A stretch of DNA of 64,000 nt. It comes from Escherichia phage fp01. The position numbers were made by a program, and so were the translations under genes. This document shows, in pieces, positions 52,119 through 64,000 of this stretch. The stretch lies in the sequence record NC_048731.1. One strand, written 5' to 3'. Under the pieces are notes generated by a model. That model was given only the letters and a program-made list of their open reading frames with translations, did no database searches and had not been told where the DNA came from. Positions within the stretch are counted from its first letter, which is position 1; each line of letters begins with the position of its first letter.

Positions 52119-53096
52119 ATGAGAATATTATTTAGTGCTGATCATCATATCAAACTAGGACAAGATAAAGTTCCAAAGGAATGGCAGAAGCGTCGCTTCC
52201 TGATGCTAGGAGAACGGTTAAATGATATATTCCATAATCATAACTGTGATCTTCATATTGCTGGTGGTGATATACTTGATGTTGCCGACCCGTCGTCAGA
52301 AGAAATAGAACTGCTTGAACAGTTCATGTCAAGACTTGACCATCCAGGCAAAATCTTTACTGGAAATCATGAAATGTTAACTAAAACCATTTCATGTCTA
52401 TATCATTATGCAGGAGTTATTAATAAAGTAACGAGCGGGAAGTGGGAAGTAATTACCAAACCATATCGTTCCCCTGAATTTGATATTGTTCCATATGACG
52501 AAATCCATAAATCTAAGTGGAAACCATCTGAATCAAAACTATGTTTCACGCATGTTCGTGGTGAAATCCCTCCACATGTAAAACCAGAAATTGATCTAAC
52601 TAAGTATAACTGTTATGATACTGTAATTGCTGGCGATTTACATTCTTATACTAATAGCCAGACTATCGGATCTACTAGACTTCTCTACCCAGGGTCTCCA
52701 TTAACTACATCGTTCCATAGAGAACGCACAAAAGGTACAAATGGTTGTTTTATCGTTGATACCGACACATTAAAAGTAGAATGGATTGAACTCGGTGATT
52801 TACCACAACTGATTCGTAAAACAATCGGAGCCGGTGAAGAGATGGAACCTAGTGATTATGATCGTGTAGTATATGAAGTTACTGGTGACGTTGTTCAATT
52901 AAAGTCAATCAAAGACTCTGATTTATTAGATAAGAAGATTAACCATCGAGTTACTAAAGACGCTAAGTTAAATCTTGTCGATCTTGATATGTTAGGTGAA
53001 CTTGAACTTTACTTCCGTGAAGTCGAGAAGCTATCTCAAGGCGACATTGATAGAATCTTGGCTAGAGCTGCGAAATATGTCAAAGATTACAATTAA
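52119..53096 (+). CDS. SbcD/Mre11-family nuclease
   Basis: 325 aa; calcineurin-like phosphoesterase motifs DHH, GGD, GNHE. Confidence 0.9.
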   Translation: MRILFSADHHIKLGQDKVPKEWQKRRFLMLGERLNDIFHNHNCDLHIAGGDILDVADPSSEEIELLEQFMSRLDHPGKIFTGNHEMLTKTISCLYHYAGVINKVTSGKWEVITKPYRSPEFDIVPYDEIHKSKWKPSESKLCFTHVRGEIPPHVKPEIDLTKYNCYDTVIAGDLHSYTNSQTIGSTRLLYPGSPLTTSFHRERTKGTNGCFIVDTDTLKVEWIELGDLPQLIRKTIGAGEEMEPSDYDRVVYEVTGDVVQLKSIKDSDLLDKKINHRVTKDAKLNLVDLDMLGELELYFREVEKLSQGDIDRILARAAKYVKDYN

Positions 53097-54915
53097 GACA
53101 CTAAAATTTAGTAACGTTATGTCTTACGGTAAGGACATCGTAATTCATTTCGATAAGAATCCAGTTACTCAACTAATTGGTGGCAATGGGCTAGGGAAAT
53201 CCACTATTGCTACTGTTATTGAAGAATTGTTTTATAACAAGAACTCACGGGGTATTAAGAAGGACGCCCTGTTCTCTTGGTCTACTCCGAAAAAAGAGTA
53301 TGATATGCACGCTTACTTCTCGAAAGATGAAGATGAGTATGAATTGCATAAAGTAGTTAAATCAACTGCTAAAGTAACTCTTATTAAGAATGGAGAAGAT
53401 ATTAGTGGCCACACGGCAACTCAAACATACAAGATGATTGAAGAGATTATGGGTGGTGACTTCCAAACATTCACCAAACTAATTTATCAATCAGTGGGTT
53501 CCAATCTAGACTTTCTAAAAGCAACAGATGCAACACGTAAGGCTTTTCTTGTCAACTTGTTCAATCAAGAACAGTATAAAGAAATGTCAGAAACTATTAA
53601 GGCTGACCGTAAAGAAATAGCAAATACCTTAAATAATTTGCAGGGCCAAATGGCTGTAATTACGAAGATCCTTAATGGAAAGAATAATCTGGGAACTTTG
53701 CAGGAACCTGTAGAAGTACCGGAGTTTGATGAAGAGCCATTAGCACAAGAACTTACTGAATCGAAAATTAAGGCGGCATTAGCCAAGTCTCAAGAGGCTA
53801 ATATTACTAAATTGCGTAATTTGGACAAAGCTGTACAAGTTGCCGAACAATCTTTCGAACCTTTCAAAAATTTGCCCGCGCCTACTGACCAAAACGAAGA
53901 GATCTCAAGTGTTACGCGTGACCTAACGATTGTGACCTCACGTGCGGGAGAAGTTAAGAAACGTTATCAGAAGTTCAAGCAAGAGGCTTCAAATACTGAA
54001 TGTCCTACTTGTGGTACTCATCTGGATACAACTGCTGCTCAAAAAGCAATGGATATGGCTAGAATAGAATATGACCCTCTGTTCAAAGAGAAGCAATCTC
54101 TTGAAGCTAAGCTAGAACAGTTGAAGAAAGAACAACTTGAGTACGTTGCGTATACTAGAGCAAAGGATGCTTTGGATAAAGCAGTGGCAGCTAGAGACGA
54201 GTTCAAAAATTCAATGAGTGACGCCTCTTTTGAAGAACTCAATGTGCAAAACCTACAGGTGCAAATCCGACAACTAGAACAGGAAATAGCTGATGGCCGT
54301 TCTAAGGTTGCAATTGCCAAAGAGCATAATGCAAATGTCGAATTAGCCAATGCAAAATATAAAGCGAAACTAGAACAGATTGAGAAAGCTGAGGCAGAAA
54401 TGTCTGAGATTACTTCCAAACTGGATGAAGTATCAGAAGCTGTTTCTGATCTAGATATTCTGATTGCTGCATTGAAAAATCTGGTAGGGTATAAACTAGA
54501 ACATAGCGTGAAAGTATTTGAAGAGCTTATCAATAAATACCTTTCCATTATGACTGGCGGTAAGTTCGCACTTGGATTTGAACTTGATGAAACAAAATTA
54601 CAAGTAGTAATCTTCAATGATGGAAACCGTACTAGTATGGAGAATTGCTCTACTGGTCAGCAAAGTCGAATCAACCTAGCAACTCTGTTAGCTATTCGAA
54701 TGCTACTAACATCTATTAGTAAAGTTAATATTAATCTTCTATTCCTTGATGAAGTAATTAGCTTTATTGATACGAAAGGACTTGACACCCTTGTTGAATT
54801 ATTAAATGAGGAAGAAAGTCTAAATTCTATCATTGTTTCTCATGGGCATACGCATCCATTGGCCCATAAGATTACTGTCAAAAAAGATGCAGAAGGATTT
54901 TCCTACTTAGAATAA
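53077..54915 (+). CDS. SbcC/Rad50-family ATPase
   Basis: ORF track 52996..54915; start placed at ATG 53077 (MSKITIKTLKF...); Walker A GGNGLGKST, zinc-hook CPTCG, Walker B LFLDEVISFID; 20-nt overlap with the SbcD-like gene. Confidence 0.9.
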   Translation: MSKITIKTLKFSNVMSYGKDIVIHFDKNPVTQLIGGNGLGKSTIATVIEELFYNKNSRGIKKDALFSWSTPKKEYDMHAYFSKDEDEYELHKVVKSTAKVTLIKNGEDISGHTATQTYKMIEEIMGGDFQTFTKLIYQSVGSNLDFLKATDATRKAFLVNLFNQEQYKEMSETIKADRKEIANTLNNLQGQMAVITKILNGKNNLGTLQEPVEVPEFDEEPLAQELTESKIKAALAKSQEANITKLRNLDKAVQVAEQSFEPFKNLPAPTDQNEEISSVTRDLTIVTSRAGEVKKRYQKFKQEASNTECPTCGTHLDTTAAQKAMDMARIEYDPLFKEKQSLEAKLEQLKKEQLEYVAYTRAKDALDKAVAARDEFKNSMSDASFEELNVQNLQVQIRQLEQEIADGRSKVAIAKEHNANVELANAKYKAKLEQIEKAEAEMSEITSKLDEVSEAVSDLDILIAALKNLVGYKLEHSVKVFEELINKYLSIMTGGKFALGFELDETKLQVVIFNDGNRTSMENCSTGQQSRINLATLLAIRMLLTSISKVNINLLFLDEVISFIDTKGLDTLVELLNEEESLNSIIVSHGHTHPLAHKITVKKDAEGFSYLE

Positions 54916-55401: not shown

Positions 55402-56276
55402 TGAGTAAATCCTGGGGAAAATTTATTGAAGAAGAGGAAGCTGAAATGGCTTCCCGTCGTAACCTAATGATTGTCGATGGAACTAACTTAGGCTTTCGCT
55501 TCAAGCATAACAATAGTAAAAAACCATTTGCCTCAAGTTATGTTTCCACTATTCAGTCTCTTGCAAAATCTTATTCTGCTAGAACTACAATAGTTTTAGG
55601 AGATAAGGGGAAGTCTGCATTCCGCTTAGAGCATTTACCTGAGTATAAGGGTAATCGAGATGAGAAATACTCTCAGCGTACGGAAGAGGAGAAAGCGTTA
55701 GATGAGCAGTTCTTCGAGTATTTGAAAGATGCTTTCGAATTATGTGAAACTACGTTCCCAACTTTCACTATTCGTGGTGTAGAAGCAGACGACATGGCAG
55801 CTTATATTGTTAAGCTCATCGGGCATCTATATGATCATATTTGGCTAATTTCTACCGATGGTGACTGGGATACTTTATTAACTGATAAAGTATCTCGCTT
55901 CTCTTTCACAACACGTCGTGAATATCATCTTCGTGATATGTATGAGCATCATAATGTTGACGATGTAGAGCAGTTTATCTCCCTGAAAGCAATTATGGGT
56001 GATTTAGGGGATAATATCCGAGGTGTTGAAGGTATTGGGGCAAAGCGTGGGTATAATATTATTCGTGAATTTGGTAACGTTCTGGATATTATTGATCAGC
56101 TTCCACTGCCTGGAAAACAGAAATATATACAGAATTTAAATGCTTCGGAAGAATTGCTTTATCGAAACCTAATTCTGGTTGATTTACCTACCTACTGTGT
56201 GGATGCTATTGCTGCTGTAGGTCAAGATGTATTAGATAAATTTACAAAAGATATTTTGGAGATTGCAGAACAATGA
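55401..56276 (+). CDS. 5'-3' exonuclease / flap endonuclease
   Basis: 291 aa; MIVDGTNLGFRF N-terminal motif, EADDMAAY, helix-hairpin-helix region. Confidence 0.9.
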   Translation: MSKSWGKFIEEEEAEMASRRNLMIVDGTNLGFRFKHNNSKKPFASSYVSTIQSLAKSYSARTTIVLGDKGKSAFRLEHLPEYKGNRDEKYSQRTEEEKALDEQFFEYLKDAFELCETTFPTFTIRGVEADDMAAYIVKLIGHLYDHIWLISTDGDWDTLLTDKVSRFSFTTRREYHLRDMYEHHNVDDVEQFISLKAIMGDLGDNIRGVEGIGAKRGYNIIREFGNVLDIIDQLPLPGKQKYIQNLNASEELLYRNLILVDLPTYCVDAIAAVGQDVLDKFTKDILEIAEQ

Positions 56277-56719
56277 TTAAAATTAAATTAACTCATCCAG
56301 ATTGTATGCCTAAGATTGGTTCCGAAGATGCTGCAGGTATGGATCTGCGAGCATTCTTTGGTACTAACCCTGCTGCAGATTTACGTGCTATTGCACCAGG
56401 CAAATCCCTAATGATTGACACCGGTGTCGCGGTGGAAATTCCGCGAGGTTGGTTCGGTTTGGTAGTTCCTCGTAGCTCTTTAGGTAAGCGTCATTTGATG
56501 ATTGCAAATACCGCGGGAGTGATTGACTCAGACTATCGTGGAACTATTAAGATGAACCTGTTCAACTACGGTTCTGAAATTCAAACTCTGGAAAATTTTG
56601 AAAGACTTTGTCAGCTGGTAGTAGTACCACACTACTCAACTCATAATTTTGAAATTGTTGACGAACTAGGGGAGACTGATCGTGGAGAGGGTGGCTTTGG
56701 AAGTTCGGGAAGTAAATAA
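56273..56719 (+). CDS. dut: dUTP pyrophosphatase
   Basis: 148 aa; AAGMDLRA, PRSSLGK, GVIDSDYRG, C-terminal RGEGGFGSSG motifs. Confidence 0.95.
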   Translation: MIKIKLTHPDCMPKIGSEDAAGMDLRAFFGTNPAADLRAIAPGKSLMIDTGVAVEIPRGWFGLVVPRSSLGKRHLMIANTAGVIDSDYRGTIKMNLFNYGSEIQTLENFERLCQLVVVPHYSTHNFEIVDELGETDRGEGGFGSSGSK

Positions 56720-56740: not shown

Positions 56741-56776
56741 AAACCCCAGAGGGATATCCCTCTGGGGTTTTCTTTT
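56741..56776. terminator. bidirectional rho-independent terminator between convergent dut and tail-fibre genes
   Basis: perfect hairpin CCCCAGAGGG-ATAT-CCCTCTGGGG flanked by A-run and T-run. Confidence 0.7.
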
Positions 56777-58904
56777 ATTGAGGTACTATCTGTACCTTTA
56801 ATTGCTTGAGTTCTTCTTCTAAGTCTTCAATCCTTTTAATAAGATCTTGAACAACATGCATAGTATCAAGAAGCATTGGAGTTGTATCAAGTTCTTTTTG
56901 TTCCTGTTCTGCCCCATTGTTATCATAGAATTTTCTAGTTTTAACATAAAGCGGTTCTATAACTTCTGTTTCCTGAGCGATAACACCTCGTCTTATACGT
57001 TGAAGATTATCGTTATTATATATGAATGTCACAAAGTTTAGATTTTTGATGTTTTCTAAAGCTTTTTCAACAGTTGTATTTTCTATAGAATGTTTAAGGC
57101 GCCTATCTGAAGTTGCATTCTTTTGTAAAGTGTATGTTTCTTCTGATCCTGGTTGCCATTTGTGGAAAAAAATATCGGAATTTAATGGTTGAATACCGAC
57201 ACGAACTCCATAAGCGTTATTAGCATCGCCAGCAATATGCCATACGGATTGTGCAAAAGATGTTCCGTTGTGATGAATCATCCCCCAGTGACACGAAGTC
57301 TTATAACCACCTTGACTAGATTGGGCACCACTAAGAAGACTATTAAAAGCGTAATTTGCTCCAATAGCCTGGTCTTCCGCGCTAAATGTACCTTTAGTAA
57401 AACCTGTTTCACTCCAAGCCATCATAGTCCCATATCTTGCTCTATATCGATCGCTACTCAGCGTACCTGTGTCATCAAAGGCAAGGTCTTTTGTCACCCC
57501 TTTTGTCTTGTTGTATACAGACAGAATCGCATAATAAAGGCCATCCATGTATGCATCGCATCGCAATCCTGCATCCGCTTCAACAACGGTGCCGATTTTG
57601 TATTGGGCCTTTACCTGTCCTGACAATGCCTTTACGCCAGAGCCTGGGCGGACAGCATCAGCATTCATTACACTCCAAGACGTATTCGCGGCAACAAAGC
57701 CACCAGAGGCACGAATCACCCAAACGCCGACAAAGTTGCGCGGAACGATTTCTGCTGCTGAACGACCATAAACAGGACTGCAGCGAGAAGCGTCAAAGTT
57801 GGTTTGTATGTACCTTGAACCAGAGCCAACCGCAGCAGGAGCGTCCCCCGAAGTTATCGACTGAAAAGCACCGTTAGTTGCCACTTGGCTTGCTAAAGAA
57901 GCCAATGTCACCATTGTGTGCGGCGCTGCGTAAGTTATATTTGGAGCGCCTGATTCAGACACAACCCCGTTGGACGATGAATTCCCGCCGTCACCCCTGC
58001 CAAATAAGGCCTGTATGGAACCAGTTTGAACACCGTTCCTGTCAGGCACTCGAAACGTTGTTGTTCCGTTACCCAAAGAATATTTACCACGCTTTGATGC
58101 GTCAGCAAGCCATTCCGCATCTGAAATCGGCGTAAGCATTTGCGCATATGCCCAAAGCTCAGGCCAGTCAGCCCTGTTAAGAAGCTGCCCATCAGAAACC
58201 ACCTCATACGGTTGAATATACGCACGGCTATCTCGAAGATGGAAATCACCGACACCGTAGTTCATCACGCCATTCATTGTGGGTCCTACTGTGCCAGTAT
58301 TAATTTTGTTCTCCACCCAACGCTTAGTTACAGCATCATAATCATTAACGGGGTCTCCCGCAAGGGGGGTAGATCCAATAGGACGAACATTTAACCACGC
58401 AGCTGCGCGATCTGCTAAATCTGATAAATTATTTTCAGTCAATAGGCTTTCGTCTTTTGTTGGCACATTATAACTTTGTCTAAAAGCTTCTTTTGATACT
58501 ACTCCAGTACCCCCTTGTTCTATAGAAAGTGCAGTGGTTAAACCTGTTAAAGATTTAATAGTTGAGTTGGCACCATCCATGTCTATACTAGCAAATCTTG
58601 ACCATGCAGTCCATGAACTGTAAAAAGATCTACTATATATCTCATTACTATTATAAGGTAAGTAAATTTGAGTACAAGAAGTTGCTAAATTGCTTGCATT
58701 ATTTTTTAAAACTAGTAATGTACCTGCAGCCGCAACAGGATAGTTAAGAGAAGTAGGAGAGTTAGCATTTTCAGATTGCCAATACTTTCCATACACACTC
58801 CCATCAAGTGTATTTAAATTTGTTCCTGTAGTAATTAAACCATATACAGGTAAAGCGGCTACATCAGTAGCCTTTAAGTTAATTTTATCAATTCTAAGAG
58901 CCAT
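56775..58904 (-). CDS. tail-fibre protein with C-terminal intramolecular chaperone (peptidase S74-like) domain
   Basis: 709 aa; C-terminal ...SDRRLKHSIENTTVEKALENIKNLNFVTFIY...QDLIKRIEDLEEELKQLK typical of auto-cleaving chaperone domains of phage fibres. Confidence 0.75.
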   Translation of the reverse strand: MALRIDKINLKATDVAALPVYGLITTGTNLNTLDGSVYGKYWQSENANSPTSLNYPVAAAGTLLVLKNNASNLATSCTQIYLPYNSNEIYSRSFYSSWTAWSRFASIDMDGANSTIKSLTGLTTALSIEQGGTGVVSKEAFRQSYNVPTKDESLLTENNLSDLADRAAAWLNVRPIGSTPLAGDPVNDYDAVTKRWVENKINTGTVGPTMNGVMNYGVGDFHLRDSRAYIQPYEVVSDGQLLNRADWPELWAYAQMLTPISDAEWLADASKRGKYSLGNGTTTFRVPDRNGVQTGSIQALFGRGDGGNSSSNGVVSESGAPNITYAAPHTMVTLASLASQVATNGAFQSITSGDAPAAVGSGSRYIQTNFDASRCSPVYGRSAAEIVPRNFVGVWVIRASGGFVAANTSWSVMNADAVRPGSGVKALSGQVKAQYKIGTVVEADAGLRCDAYMDGLYYAILSVYNKTKGVTKDLAFDDTGTLSSDRYRARYGTMMAWSETGFTKGTFSAEDQAIGANYAFNSLLSGAQSSQGGYKTSCHWGMIHHNGTSFAQSVWHIAGDANNAYGVRVGIQPLNSDIFFHKWQPGSEETYTLQKNATSDRRLKHSIENTTVEKALENIKNLNFVTFIYNNDNLQRIRRGVIAQETEVIEPLYVKTRKFYDNNGAEQEQKELDTTPMLLDTMHVVQDLIKRIEDLEEELKQLKVQIVPQ

Positions 58905-58913
58905 TTTAACTCC

Positions 58914-59219
58914 TTATGCCCACATGCGAACAGGTGTTTCTGGGTTTACTATAAATTTATCTAGTATAGAGAGATCAAAATCATCAATATTCATAATACG
59001 CAGATTAACGTGATATCCTTCTTGCACTACATACTCAATATCTTCTATATTTTGATACTCTGTTAAGGGTTTTGCAGGCTGACTGATAATACCGATAAAA
59101 TCAATACTGACATTTTCACAATATAAACTACCTGTTTCTTCATCTAAACTAAAGCCAAATTTTATCAAATTAATTTTCATTTCATCAGCATTAGTAAATT
59201 TTAGATATAAATCTTTCAT
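58914..59219 (-). CDS. hypothetical protein
   Basis: ORF track 101 aa. Confidence 0.45.
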   Translation of the reverse strand: MKDLYLKFTNADEMKINLIKFGFSLDEETGSLYCENVSIDFIGIISQPAKPLTEYQNIEDIEYVVQEGYHVNLRIMNIDDFDLSILDKFIVNPETPVRMWA

Positions 59220-59265: not shown

Positions 59266-61169
59266 TTACCGTAAGCCATTAATTTGATCATTATTTAAAG
59301 CCCTATACCATACTCGGAAATTCTTAATATGATATACAAATTTAGAAGGGGTAGGAGATGGTGATGCACCTAACCTAGACGGAATACCTGTCAAACTCAC
59401 GGGAGTACTAGTAGATTTAGCAGTTTTACCATTAAAGAAATTACTAATCTCATTCCCTGTTATTTTTTGAGCATAGGTCATAGGAGGTAGACTTTCTATA
59501 TCTGGAATAGCTAAGGTTGGCCCTGTACTAGATCTATATGTTCTTATAGTGGCATTATCAGCGCTATCACAGCGGCAGATAATGTCATACTTAGAACCTC
59601 TTACTTGCATAACTTCTACATAACTAGTATAAGGTCGTACTTTACAATTAAATTCAAAAGATACTGTGCGCTCAAAGTAGTCCGCCAGGGTTCTATAGCC
59701 GGCATTATCTGGTATACACCACCATTCATCTGCTGTTCTAGTAGTGGTGGTATCAGTGCTATTACGGATGTAAGAAGTTGGAGCTATGCCTTCCTCAACC
59801 TGTATACCCCAAATGTAGAAACCAGAAACACCATCCCCCTGGTAGACAGTAGTATTGGTATTTTTAGCCATCTGGAGTCTAAATATAGTGCTTCGACTTT
59901 CAGTGGCTGCAAAAGAAACCCAAATTCTATATATACCTCCAGTTAATCTCTCATACCCCCCTCTAATATTACTAGCAGAACCACTTGTAGCAACAGTTTC
60001 ATTTTTAATATCAAAAAACATACCAACAGTTGTACCGGAAGCTACACGTAGATATACTAAACGGTTAGCGGTATCATCTTTAACATAAGCAGAATAGCAA
60101 TAAAAAGTATCAGCAGTCAAAGATATCCATTTATCGTTGCAGTAATGCTCGCCGTCATTGGTATTCTCGGTAAACTTAGTCATCAACATTTCGCCAGTCG
60201 GGCACGCCGAAGCATTAGGAGTTGTAATAACTAGACTACCTCCAGTAATTGCTTCTGAATTAGTATATAAATTAGTGCACTGAGACTCCATTAATAAACC
60301 TTGCTTTTCAAATCTAGGTTCATTAATATCTGCAAAACACATTTTACCACTTTTATCTATATAACTGGCGGTAGTTGAGCGAGTAAAATTTGCAGATTTT
60401 GTTGGCAATTCCAGAGTTACATCATTAATTGTTGCTAAATCGTAGGGGGCCATACCAGATAATAATCTCATATCATCAGTTAAAGGTACCCAAACATCCG
60501 GATAAGGGACAGGTTCATACATAATAATACTAGCAGCAGAAGCAGCGGCGGCAGCTTCAGAAGCTTTAGCATTAATTTCAGAAGCTTTAGCGTTAGTCTC
60601 TGAAGCTTTAGCATTAGTCTCAGAAGNNNNNNNNNNNNNNNNNNNNNNNNNNNNNNNNNNNNNNNNNTTTTACTTGCTAATGCATTAGTTTCGCTAGTAG
60701 CAGCATTAGTTTCCGAGGTTTTAGCTTTGGTTTCACTAGATTTTGCATTAGTTTCTGATGCTTTTGCATTAGTCTCGGATGTTTTAGCCTTAGTTTCACT
60801 AGCTTTCGCATTAGTCTCAGATACTTTAGCTGCTGCGGCTGATGCTGCAGATCTATCCGCTGATGCAGCAGATTGAGTAGCAGATGTAGCGGACTGAGTG
60901 GCAGAGGCTTCAGAAGCTCCAGCAGAAATAGCAGCTTCCTGTTCAGAATCCTTAGCATTAAGTTCTGAAGTCTTAGCAGCTATCTCAGAAGCTTTTGCAG
61001 CTGCAGCAGATTTAGCCGTAGCCTCAATAGAGGATACTAATTCACTTGCAGTAATAGAGCTAATAGAATTACCTAGAGTTACAGTATATCTAGGAAATTT
61101 ACTAGCAGTAGCTTTAGTATCATCAATATTTAATATCTGTTGTACAATAATCTTAGTAGTTACTGCCAT
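59266..61169 (-). CDS. tail-fibre protein with N-terminal S-E-T-N-A-K-A heptad repeats, interrupted by an assembly gap
   Basis: ORF track splits it (59266..60522 and 60480..61169); the frame of the downstream ORF stays open upstream through SETNAKASETNAKASEINAKASEAAAAAS to the N run, matching the repeat in the upstream ORF. Confidence 0.55.
60627..60667. other. assembly gap (41 N) inside a repetitive coding region
   Basis: run of n characters flanked by near-identical 21-nt repeats (aagctttagcattagtctcag...). Confidence 0.95.
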
Positions 61170-61591
61170 TATTTAGTTACCCCATCACTGATAAATACTT
61201 TACCCTCCATTATGCGAAAGGAGCTAATTGCAGATCCTACAACATCTCTAGTCATGATTATATCATAGTATCCTGCTAATCGCTGACGGGGGTTATACTT
61301 ATCTCTATCTTTAGATGCTTTAGCTCCTAGATTTTCCACGGATTCTACTGGCAAACTTATAGCCACAGCCCCCTGGGCAGCATCAATAATATTAGTAGTA
61401 AAGGATGCTAGGGTTTCTGCGTTCTCTTCTAGACTACTTTTTATAACACCTCTTAGAGAATACCCCGTTAAATTAACAGGGGTATTTGTAGGTGGGTAAG
61501 TACTATCATCAACATCTAAGAACTGCATCATTAAACCATATGGTACTTTCTCATCTATTACTAAGTCTATAACTCTATTTTCAGTACTCAT
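61169..61591 (-). CDS. hypothetical tail-associated protein
   Basis: ORF track 140 aa; start overlaps neighbour stop. Confidence 0.45.
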
Positions 61592-61594
61592 TAT

Positions 61595-63652
61595 TTACCT
61601 TATATGGATGTACCCGTTTTGCAGGTCTATCTTCATTCTGTAATAGGCTTCCGGGTTGGAGGATAGTGCTGCTGCACGATCATATATAATATTTACACCG
61701 ATTTGGGATAGGAAAGCATTACCAGCAACTATTTTACTAGCAGTTACAGTACCATTAACTATCATATCACCGTGTAAGACCATAGCAGGGCTAACCCATG
61801 CCGAGCCATTCCATTGTCTAGTAAATGCTGTTTGCGGAGCATTACTATTAAACTCAGTTAATACATCGTATTTAACAGGCGGGGAACCAAAATTACTTTG
61901 GAAGAAGGAGTTAGCACGACTATCGTCCCATCCTCCTAATCCGGCCACTCCAAGAGAATACATGCCCGGACCTCTCTGGCCATCCGCACCAATAGTACCT
62001 TCAGTACCACTCCACTGAACAACATCCGCCCAACTAGTACCTTCCAATAATTTATTTGTAACAGGGTCTAGAGTACCAGTTGTAGCATAAATATTCTGAG
62101 TCATATCAGTACGGTTAGGTGGTGTTTTAGACCATCCAGGAGGCGGATAATCTTGCTCCAATGGTTTTGCTGGCAAACTTTTACCAAGTTTATAAACAAA
62201 TACTGTTTGTTTACCCTGCATCCCAGTACCAATATCTACGTCTCCATTAGGAGTACCAATAACAACTCCACTAGAAATACGAAGAGTATCGCCATCATAG
62301 CGTATCCACTGAGTAGCATTACCTATATCTAACTTTGGCTTAGCAGAAGTGTTATCCATTCCCATCCAGATACCAGATTTTGTATCTCCCCAAGTTTTAC
62401 CTTGAGTATAGATTGCCGGGTTATCTTGGCCAGTTAGATTAGTCATTACAAAGTTAGCAGCATTGATAGTTTTAGTTATAATACTACCATCAACGTTAAC
62501 TATCTTTTTAATAGGGTCGAAAGATATTGGTGCTTTTCCTTCTGCATCTAGGAGGCCTATATTAATAGCACCAGTAGCAGCATCGATTAAAAATGTTTGC
62601 TTCCACGTGGAGCCATCTTTGATCTTACCTTTAATATACGCATAGTTTACTTCTATACCAGTTTCATTAACAAAGCTATTATCAAGATGGGTGTCCTCAT
62701 TTAGTATAAAAGTCTGTACTGCAGAATCTGTAACATCTTGAGCATTTGGCCCCCACGCTATAGAGGAGACCTTAAATTTATGCTCAATTTTCCACGGAAA
62801 CGATATAATAGTTGCCGCTTGTGCAGCACCTACGTTAATTTTTTGGGCCTTAGTCCATCCAGTTCTTGCAAATTCTGTGGAATCTATATAAGAAACGACA
62901 AATTCCCGAACATTGGCTCCAGATCCCCTATTCCACTCCCACTGTACACGAAGGTCATATCTCTCTTTACCATCTGCAATTCTTGCAGCCTTGAAGGTAA
63001 TATTGCTAGGAGCAGTGGGCGGTACAAAGTTATACTCTACAGTAAGAACTTTAGAAAATTCAAAGTATCCAGAGGAGTCTACCGTTACACCATCAGGCAT
63101 AGTAACTTGCCCTGATATGCGTACTTTATAATCACCAATAGGGACACCACCAAATCTAATAGTGGGGGATAACGGACCTACATAATATTTTACCCACGTA
63201 CTATTTGAAGGTTGAGTACTTTTTAACTCAATAGTACAGTAGCTTGCTTCACCAGTTGTTTCTACGACAACTATCGGTGCACCTACCCCAACATCCACAG
63301 GTTCTGATTCAGATCTTGCTGCAACAATTGTTGGCTTCTCTTTTGTCCTAAAGTTAGTCTCATTAGAGAGATTGATACCAATCTTAGCCTCTAACAGTTC
63401 AGAATCAATAATAGAGTCGTAAAAAGCCCCTTGAATCTCATAAGAGGTTGAAGGGGTCAGATTATTAATCATTACGAAGAAAGTATCTATACCAGTATAA
63501 TCACGTCTATCTATACTTTCTCCTGTCTTTAACCAAAAAGATCTGCCAATAACGTCATAGTCAGTATATATAGAATGCTGGACATATGCCATTGTATATC
63601 CAGTCATTATACTATTTAAGACCATTTTGGCTGGTGCATTATTCGAAATCAT
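61595..63652 (-). CDS. tail/baseplate structural protein (beta-rich, fibre-like)
   Basis: ORF track 61595..63667; likely start is ATG 63650-63652 (MISNN...) overlapping the upstream stop as TAATG; Gly/Thr/Ser-rich with no enzymatic motifs. Confidence 0.55.
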   Translation of the reverse strand: MISNNAPAKMVLNSIMTGYTMAYVQHSIYTDYDVIGRSFWLKTGESIDRRDYTGIDTFFVMINNLTPSTSYEIQGAFYDSIIDSELLEAKIGINLSNETNFRTKEKPTIVAARSESEPVDVGVGAPIVVVETTGEASYCTIELKSTQPSNSTWVKYYVGPLSPTIRFGGVPIGDYKVRISGQVTMPDGVTVDSSGYFEFSKVLTVEYNFVPPTAPSNITFKAARIADGKERYDLRVQWEWNRGSGANVREFVVSYIDSTEFARTGWTKAQKINVGAAQAATIISFPWKIEHKFKVSSIAWGPNAQDVTDSAVQTFILNEDTHLDNSFVNETGIEVNYAYIKGKIKDGSTWKQTFLIDAATGAINIGLLDAEGKAPISFDPIKKIVNVDGSIITKTINAANFVMTNLTGQDNPAIYTQGKTWGDTKSGIWMGMDNTSAKPKLDIGNATQWIRYDGDTLRISSGVVIGTPNGDVDIGTGMQGKQTVFVYKLGKSLPAKPLEQDYPPPGWSKTPPNRTDMTQNIYATTGTLDPVTNKLLEGTSWADVVQWSGTEGTIGADGQRGPGMYSLGVAGLGGWDDSRANSFFQSNFGSPPVKYDVLTEFNSNAPQTAFTRQWNGSAWVSPAMVLHGDMIVNGTVTASKIVAGNAFLSQIGVNIIYDRAAALSSNPEAYYRMKIDLQNGYIHIR

Positions 63653-64000
63653 TAAATGGATGCCCACTCCACAGACTGTTCTCCATCATCTCCTTCCGCT
63701 CTAATACGAAAATATAGTTTTCTATTGATTCCTAGAGCATCACTATTATGAAGAGCAAAATCTGCCTTATTATACATTAATAAATAGTCATAAGTATACT
63801 GATTTTCAATACGTACACTTCTTAGCATTCTATTCTGGGAATCATAGATTTCCAGAGTATAGAATATACTTTCTATTATATCTTCTTCTGGTATCCTATC
63901 CCAAGCTAGTTTTACATCTGGGCCTACAAATTCAGTTACATCCCCAGAAGCCGTATTAGTTACCCTAAAATTAGATACTACGCTTAGGTTTTTAGCAGAG
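63652..64000 (-). CDS. partial CDS (C-terminal part; N-terminus beyond window end), probable tail structural protein
   Basis: open minus-strand frame from the window edge to stop at 63652-63654 (...EWASI*). Confidence 0.4.
   Translation of the reverse strand, partial: SAKNLSVVSNFRVTNTASGDVTEFVGPDVKLAWDRIPEEDIIESIFYTLEIYDSQNRMLRSVRIENQYTYDYLLMYNKADFALHNSDALGINRKLYFRIRAEGDDGEQSVEWASI

Follow-up and report, generated by a model that had tools for sequence, protein, structure and literature searches.

The DNA analysed in this study, a stretch of 64,000 nucleotides (nt) from Escherichia phage fp01 (NC_048731.1; hereafter the window), belongs to a Tequintavirus, i.e. a T5-like phage, and carries on the minus strand at 56775-58904 an open reading frame (ORF) for a protein of 709 amino acids (aa), starting with ATG. 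This gene's product is most likely the distal one of two subunits that make up a lateral tail fibre, with a C-terminal chaperone predicted to cleave itself and a T-shaped pair of receptor-binding domains (RBDs), and the gene would share a terminator with the facing dut gene. With good confidence, we consider the 709-aa protein as the outer, host-sugar-binding part of the two-piece side fibre of a T5-like phage. The fibre is of an ordinary, already described kind, a member of a recently described class in a known phage, and it differs from its class by a variant of the N-terminal knob module and by a new combination of RBDs. An earlier note, prepared from the DNA letters alone, had called the product a tail fibre; in good agreement, the ORF was found in the ORF list of the window, its product and the GenBank 'tail fiber protein' of fp01 (P0001) share 100% identity, and the protein matches PHROG 6921 'tail fiber protein' with E=8e-193.

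The class to which the fp01 fibre is assigned is represented by Gp24 of phage IrisVonRoten (Bas32), a 'T-shaped' fibre with Gp12-like RBD1, T5-like RBD2 and C-terminal chaperone (Humolli et al. 2025, PMC11990801). In the published model of the Iris fibre, Gp24 is carried by the proximal fibre Gp22, which ends in a galectin-like domain, and the same class has been described for Wifcevirus and Gordonclarkvirinae, with the receptor-binding domains often horizontally exchanged (PMC11990801). The fp01 protein is homologous to Gp24 over its full length (67% identity between aa 150-709 of fp01 and residues 15-574 of Gp24), and the same region of fp01 is 72% identical to gp23 of SelmaRatti (Bas34). 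The predicted order of modules, that is, shaft, Gp12-like RBD1, T5-like RBD2 and chaperone, is the same in these three phages, and the fp01 locus is syntenic with gp21-gp24 of IrisVonRoten and gp20-gp23 of SelmaRatti, each consisting of LtfC, a lectin-ended proximal fibre, a protein of about 90-100 aa, the distal fibre and dut. This gene order was also found in IME178, HMD-P3 and a Logan contig. In fp01 the genes upstream of the 709-aa gene on the same strand are, in order, the 101-aa ORF, the proximal fibre gene, LtfC and pb4, so that the distal fibre gene comes after that of a proximal fibre which is bound to the collar and has a lectin-like C-terminus. LtfC is the collar protein by which the proximal fibre is held to the tail, a role described in the structural study of DT57C. 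The best tblastn matches of the fibre were from Tequintavirus, Wifcevirus (Bas98-101) and phages of about 70-82 kb including the Gordonclarkvirinae phage AnnaHegner (Bas87), reproducing the published distribution of the T-shaped class. There are, however, some differences from IrisVonRoten and SelmaRatti. Among the three, fp01 alone carries about 135 extra N-terminal aa including a knob-like domain, the first ~20 aa differ, the alleles of both RBD1 and RBD2 differ, and the C-terminal part of the fp01 proximal fibre shows just a partial relation to Iris gp22.

The modules of the 709-aa protein were defined by combining homology, profile search and structure modelling with AlphaFold2 (AF2). The N-terminal ~25 aa, presumed to dock on the proximal fibre, occur only in the Tequintavirus class of about 705-718 aa, with 88-100% identity. 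Sequence comparison gave no similarity of this peptide to the collar-binding N-terminus of pb1/LtfA or to the N-terminus of LtfB. As a side observation, the fp01 N-terminus (IDKINLKA) weakly resembles that of Iris and Selma (TDITKLKN), the stretch being too short to count as evidence. The following segment, aa ~30-115, is a beta domain in the AF2 model (pLDDT, the score of the predicted local distance difference test, 60-82) and is similar to knob domains found in the fibre of R2 pyocin, with a profile E=0.005 against 6ct8 and a Foldseek probability of 0.98. This knob-like domain is missing from the Tequintavirus distal fibres of about 575 aa and is placed after the anchor domain in Wifcevirus fibres. 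Within the segment of shaft and RBD1, aa 151-300 are 77-99% identical across Tequintavirus and Wifcevirus fibres and 52-61% identical in two 722-aa fibres of the Gordonclarkvirinae type, whereas the identity falls to 42-54% for aa 301-400 in most homologues. The Pfam Collar match on aa 274-291 stays below the cut-off (15.1 bits against 24; E=0.023), and the designation of a Gp12-like RBD1 is taken from the homology to IrisVonRoten Gp24. The distal segment, aa 411-598, modelled by AF2 as beta strands (pLDDT 60-87), is variable and probably binds glycans; searches did not reveal any direct similarity between it and T5 pb1. Pfam and NCBIfam searches at lax thresholds gave nothing meaningful on aa 1-150 and aa 336-598.

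As to the attachment of this fibre, a collar-binding N-terminus is present on the upstream protein only and not on the 709-aa protein, and both genetics (PMC4728585) and cryo-electron microscopy of DT57C have shown that a second fibre protein can ride on the collar-bound one. If the 709-aa protein instead formed an independent second fibre set, it should bind the tail tip or the collar directly, as might be expected from its Wifcevirus homologues, which bear their own baseplate anchor domain. The fibre of the type of HansTraber Bas100 gp105 and ManiWeber Bas99 Gp114 is indeed 67% identical over aa 21-703 of fp01, including the knob-like domain in the case of Bas100, but it belongs to a myovirus with direct attachment to the baseplate through an N-terminal anchor of about 100 aa, which is absent from fp01. 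At the position of the anchor (aa 1-103 of Bas100 gp105), fp01 has about 20 unique residues. In addition, the N-terminus of the 709-aa protein is unlike the collar-binding segment of pb1/LtfA, no second fibre density was found on the tail core of DT57C, and the published Iris model puts the distal fibre on the proximal fibre (PMC11990801). We consider such an independent fibre set improbable.

The other two-protein lateral fibre on an LtfC collar, likewise with C-terminal S74 domain, is that of DT57C, composed of LtfA and LtfB (Golomidova 2016, PMC4728585; Ayala 2023, PDB 8HQZ), in which the phiEco32 gp15-like N-terminus of LtfB is set on a gp14-like region in the middle of LtfA, both proteins carrying S74. 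Assignment of the 709-aa protein to the LtfB branch of this system may look attractive, as DT57C LtfA (PDB 8hqz_d) is its sole solved relative by sequence (LtfA 528-876 aligns with aa 151-490, with 91% identity between LtfA 528-680 and aa 151-300, and the chaperone domains align too), aa 111-703 are 43% identical to LtfB 116-785, and ltfB occupies the same position beside dut. The features by which the DT57C system is defined are, however, missing from fp01. The N-terminal ~110 aa of the 709-aa protein are without similarity to the N-terminus of LtfB, including its gp15-like ~45 aa, and the BLASTP alignment begins only at aa 111; the upstream protein matches LtfA over residues 1-118 only and lacks the docking region 223-471, so that neither docking module of LtfA/LtfB is present; in fp01, S74 is confined to the 709-aa protein, the upstream one being devoid of it; and a small ORF is inserted between the two fibre genes of fp01 but not of DT57C. 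The LtfB assignment, contradicted at the level of sequence by its N-terminus and its partner, is very unlikely, and the fp01 fibre is, on this comparison, a two-part fibre but not of the DT57C LtfA/LtfB type. The alignments with T5 pb1 and LtfA/LtfB proposed in the earlier note thus recovered the LtfA and LtfB relationship but not that to pb1, for which BLASTP of the 709-aa protein gave no match at E<=1e-3. A 'shortened pb1' was rejected on the same ground. T5 pb1 (PDB 4UW7/4UW8; Garcia-Doval 2015, PMC4690869) shares with fp01 the coiled-coil chaperone, the adjacency to dut and an orthologous terminator, but is a single chain of 1396 aa that binds the collar by its N-terminus and has a bullet-shaped RBD in its C-terminal part, an organization not found for the 709-aa protein; the N-terminal homology to pb1 resides in the upstream gene of fp01 (51% over ~200 aa).

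The C-terminal S74-type region, predicted in the earlier note, was confirmed by Pfam, PF13884 (Peptidase_S74) matching aa 599-649 with 46.8 bits, well above the gathering cut-off of 22 (E=3.6e-12). The profile search suggested there as a check did reveal S74 homology, and the outcome that was to speak against the claim, no such homology, did not arise. The motif SDRRLKHSIENTTVEKAL quoted in that note starts at aa 599, and the chaperone domain opens with S599-D-R-R-L-K604, carrying the Ser/Lys dyad of endoNF and pb1 that marks C-terminal intramolecular chaperone domains. When 76 homologues were aligned, all of them (76/76) had D600 and K604, 74 had Ser at position 599 and the other 2 had Cys, and the length of the chaperone domain was mostly 103-120 aa. 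The profile built from these 76 sequences matches solved chaperone domains (S16 gp37, 6f45, E=2.8e-6; MyRF ICA, 7dc3, E=6e-5; GA-1, 3gud, E=0.025), and so does the fold of the C-terminal region. AF2 modelled this region with confidence (pLDDT 75-91), giving, at the extreme C-terminus of the fibre, a mixed alpha/beta fold with a C-terminal coiled-coil helix (aa 674-706). For T5 pb1, crystal structures and the S1264A mutant have established the cut between Thr1263 and Ser1264, with Lys1269 activating the Ser (PMC4690869). The Thr-Ser bond and the Ser-x4-Lys spacing are identical between pb1 and fp01, and very probably the built-in chaperone of fp01 cuts itself off. Cleavage at T598-S599 is predicted to free 111 residues and to leave a fibre of 598 aa; the release of about 130 residues assumed in the earlier note is too long for fp01, 133 aa being the size of the pb1 chaperone (PMC4690869). 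That the S74 domain is retained uncleaved, or serves for folding without proteolysis, could be argued from the residue preceding the Ser, which varies among I, T and V in the homologues, but is highly improbable in view of the Ser nucleophile and Lys conserved in essentially all 76 and of the same dipeptide at the cleaved bond of pb1 (T1263-S1264, PMC4690869).

Taken together, the preferred view of a distal, chaperone-matured T-shaped fibre leads to the following scheme, modelled on the homologues. Three chains would trimerise, and the 111-aa S74 chaperone, ending in its coiled-coil helix, would nucleate folding of the interdigitated beta structures upstream. After correct folding of the trimer, Lys604-activated Ser599 would cut the T598-S599 bond and free the chaperone. 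The mature 598-aa fibre would then consist, from N to C, of the docking peptide, the pyocin-knob-like domain, the conserved shaft, RBD1 and the terminal RBD2, and hang on the proximal fibre, of which the pb1/LtfA-like N-terminus would be locked in the LtfC collar and which would carry lectin-like domains of its own at the end. A T-shaped fibre with dual RBD is thought to bind O-antigen-type glycans reversibly. The variable receptor-binding parts would be swapped by recombination at the conserved linkers, allowing the host range to evolve module by module, and transcription of the late fibre gene and of the convergent early dut would end at one common bidirectional intrinsic terminator. Several points weigh against this scheme. 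For fp01, the cleavage is predicted, and the attachment to the proximal fibre is what we infer; the first ~25 aa, the presumed attachment point, are without a match among proteins of known function; and the AF2 monomer, with mean pLDDT of 60.9, fails in intertwined regions, with pLDDT below 50 at aa 1-21, 121-235 and 289-411, the N-terminal ~25 aa also being below 50. Moreover, the labels RBD1 and RBD2 and the T-shape are borrowed through homology from a protein that was itself characterised by modelling.

The coordinates of all features are summarized in Table 1.

Table 1. Features predicted in and around the distal tail fibre locus of phage fp01 (positions in the window)
Feature	Position	Strand	Basis or remark
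Distal lateral tail fibre gene	56775..58904	-	ORF list and GenBank identity; stop codon 56775-56777
N-terminal ~25 aa MALRIDKINLKATDVAALPVYGLIT, presumed docking peptide for proximal fibre	58830..58904	-	Class-restricted conservation
Pyocin-knob-like beta domain, aa ~30-115	58560..58817	-	Profile, Foldseek, AF2
Conserved shaft and collar/Gp12-like RBD1, aa 150-410	57675..58457	-	Homology; hypervariable insert ~aa 301-400
Distal beta-rich domain, aa 411-598, equivalent to 'T5-like RBD2'	57111..57674	-	Homology to Iris Gp24
C-terminal intramolecular chaperone/Peptidase S74 domain, aa 599-709 (111 aa)	56778..57110	-	Predicted scissile bond T598-S599
Ser599 codon, predicted nucleophile	57108..57110	-	Equivalent to pb1 Ser1264 (PMC4690869)
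Lys604 codon, predicted general base, 5 residues after Ser	57093..57095	-	Equivalent to pb1 Lys1269
Bidirectional intrinsic terminator (predicted), 13-bp GC-rich palindromic hairpin	56741..56770	.	Scan, folding, T5 orthology
dut (dUTPase), last gene of convergent early block	56273..56719	+	Pfam dUTPase E=6e-26
101-aa conserved small protein between fibre genes	58914..59219	-	PHROG 18574 and 1361 (both function-unknown families)
Proximal lateral fibre gene	59266..61169	-	pb1/LtfA-type collar-binding N-terminus, SETNAKA heptads, C-terminal GTA-spike-fibre and LamG-like domains
LtfC collar gene	61169..61591	-	Pfam LtfC PF23926 E=3.5e-13
pb4	61595-63667	-	Upstream of LtfC gene, same strand as fibre genes

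The fibre gene on the minus strand and dut on the plus strand are convergent, and between them lies the hairpin that had been noticed before as a perfect bidirectional terminator. The hairpin was confirmed: the scan detected it on both strands, each with T-rich runs, in the form of a perfect stem of 13 bp closed by a loop of 4 nt, and its folding is significant on the two strands (z = -6.6 and -6.2), none of 200 shuffled sequences folding as well. It is orthologous to the feature annotated in the T5 GenBank record as 'efficient bidirectional rho-independent transcription terminator', downstream of dut and ahead of ltf, where dut and the hairpin of T5 are separated by an additional small ORF, T5.132. 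All seven T5-like phages examined (7/7) have a hairpin in the dut/fibre intergenic region, that of DT57C being located a few hundred nt further from dut. The base of the hairpin, AAACCCC...GGGGTTT, is conserved across these phages, and the upper stem shows compensatory changes (GAGGG/CCCTC in fp01, GTGGA/TCCAC in T5, ATGGA/TCCAT in HMD-P3 and GGTGGA/TCCACC in SelmaRatti). The predicted dut/fibre terminator is a known, conserved feature. A second small hairpin of 7 bp (GGTAC-N-GTACC type) lies beside the terminator at 56780-56798, within the last fibre codons, and appeared in the folds of both strands.

Comparison with the closest homologues indicates that the 709-aa protein is, by its pattern of identities, a clear recombinational mosaic. 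One homologue (P0002), encoded on a different T5-like contig that has this gene order too, shows 93-97% identity to fp01 in aa 1-110 and ~100% in aa 111-490, the value dropping to 55% beyond aa 545; in another (P0009), the identity is just 50% for aa 301-400 and 97-100% for aa 401-709. The extra N-terminal ~135 aa, relative to the ~575-aa Tequintavirus distal fibres, are common to HMD-P3, IME178, AZ21/AZ23 and several metagenomic contigs, and aa 21-150 of fp01 align with residues 104-235 of Wifcevirus Bas100 gp105, which follow the baseplate anchor. In two proteins of 933-938 aa (P0024 and P0025), a prophage tail-fibre N-terminal domain, PF08400, is fused directly to the body of a T-fibre, with 91-96% identity to fp01 over aa 491-650 (RBD2 and the chaperone domain's first half). 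This suggests that lambdoid prophages and T5-like phages have recently exchanged sequence. Both parts of the earlier proposal of a two-component or mosaic fibre are thus upheld, by the two-part locus and the mosaic pattern of identities, with the reservation that the two components are not of the DT57C LtfA/LtfB type. In a separate observation, T5-like fibre genes with 63-78% identity to the 709-aa gene were found under the names 'Campylobacter phage C13' and 'Listeria phage LM 4-14-1' (MG065692.1, OR848352.1, OR844773.1); the host labels of these records look wrong, or the records look like contaminants.

The repeat-containing fibre gene noted next to the 709-aa gene was found in the form of the proximal fibre gene, which carries 21-nt tandem repeats encoding the heptad SETNAKA. 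A mask of 41 Ns at 60627-60667, inside these repeats, splits the gene into two apparent ORFs in different frames. The N-terminal aa 1-111 of the product are 73% identical to DT57C LtfA and 51% to T5 pb1, and its C-terminal 418 aa are 95% identical to an uninterrupted protein of 729 aa from IME178. The HMD-P3 record annotates two overlapping coding sequences at this gene, probably split by a repeat-induced frameshift. The C-terminal part matches NCBIfam GTA_spike_fiber (phage head spike fibre) with E=4.7e-32; within the ORF at 59266-60522 (minus strand), this domain and the LamG/ConA-like end cover aa 77-264 and 354-415. The LamG/ConA-like end carries the conserved motif NFR(I/V)W...L...Q, its match to Laminin_G_3 being below threshold. 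A Pfam scan gave no S74 match in the C-terminal 418 aa. The GTA-spike/LamG end is a candidate for an extra receptor-binding module.

The gene of the 101-aa protein lies between the two fibre genes; its counterparts in HMD-P3 and IME178 show 98-99% identity, those in Iris (gp23) and Selma (gp22) 32% and 28%, respectively. In lambdoid phage 21 and Lambda_ev phages, all devoid of a distal S74 fibre, homologues are encoded directly after the side tail fibre. When phage 21 is compared with Iris, the identity is 49% for the small protein and 46% for the fibre; between AZ23 and fp01, it is 42% for the small protein, ~35% for the proximal C-terminus and 96% for the distal-fibre N-terminus. The small protein thus seems to co-vary with the upstream LamG-ended fibre. 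Because of its Tfa-like position and because its identity tracks the upstream fibre, we infer from these few cases that it probably serves the proximal fibre, in its assembly or as an accessory factor, and it may have a Tfa-like role in assembly. A function as adaptor of the S74 fibre was also considered and is unlikely, given the homologues in phage 21 without distal fibre and the AZ23 small protein with just 42% identity despite the 96% identical distal-fibre N-terminus.

A more far-reaching interpretation is that the fp01-type lateral fibre constitutes an unusually multivalent glycan-binding device, with up to four candidate modules per arm on three arms, namely the GTA-spike-fibre/LamG domains of the proximal fibre and the knob-like domain, RBD1 and RBD2 of the distal fibre. 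The knob would then have been acquired from Wifcevirus-type fibres and be a third receptor-binding site, not a spacer. We regard this interpretation as unlikely; if true, it would help to explain the reported polyvalence of fp01 for Escherichia and Salmonella, which the fp01 genome paper credits to the pb5-like gp108 alone, the fibres being nowhere mentioned (PMC9961651). The preferred assignment as a T-shaped distal fibre reveals no new mechanism and brings little conceptual surprise, its value being practical with respect to host range. The O-antigen types that can be overcome by a T5-like phage are determined by its lateral fibres, which are the part to read or re-engineer for host range, and fp01, which infects both E. 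coli and Salmonella, has been proposed for biocontrol. The map, with its module boundaries, recombination junctions and predicted site of maturation, can be applied directly to fibre swapping.

Apart from the fibre locus, an SbcC-like ORF at 52996-54915 on the plus strand, listed from the first in-frame start (GTG), overlaps by about 100 nt with the end of the SbcD-like ORF at 52119-53096 on the same strand. The true start of the SbcC-like ORF is probably located further downstream than the listed GTG, because the T5 and DT57C records annotate an SbcC/SbcD overlap of merely ~20 nt.

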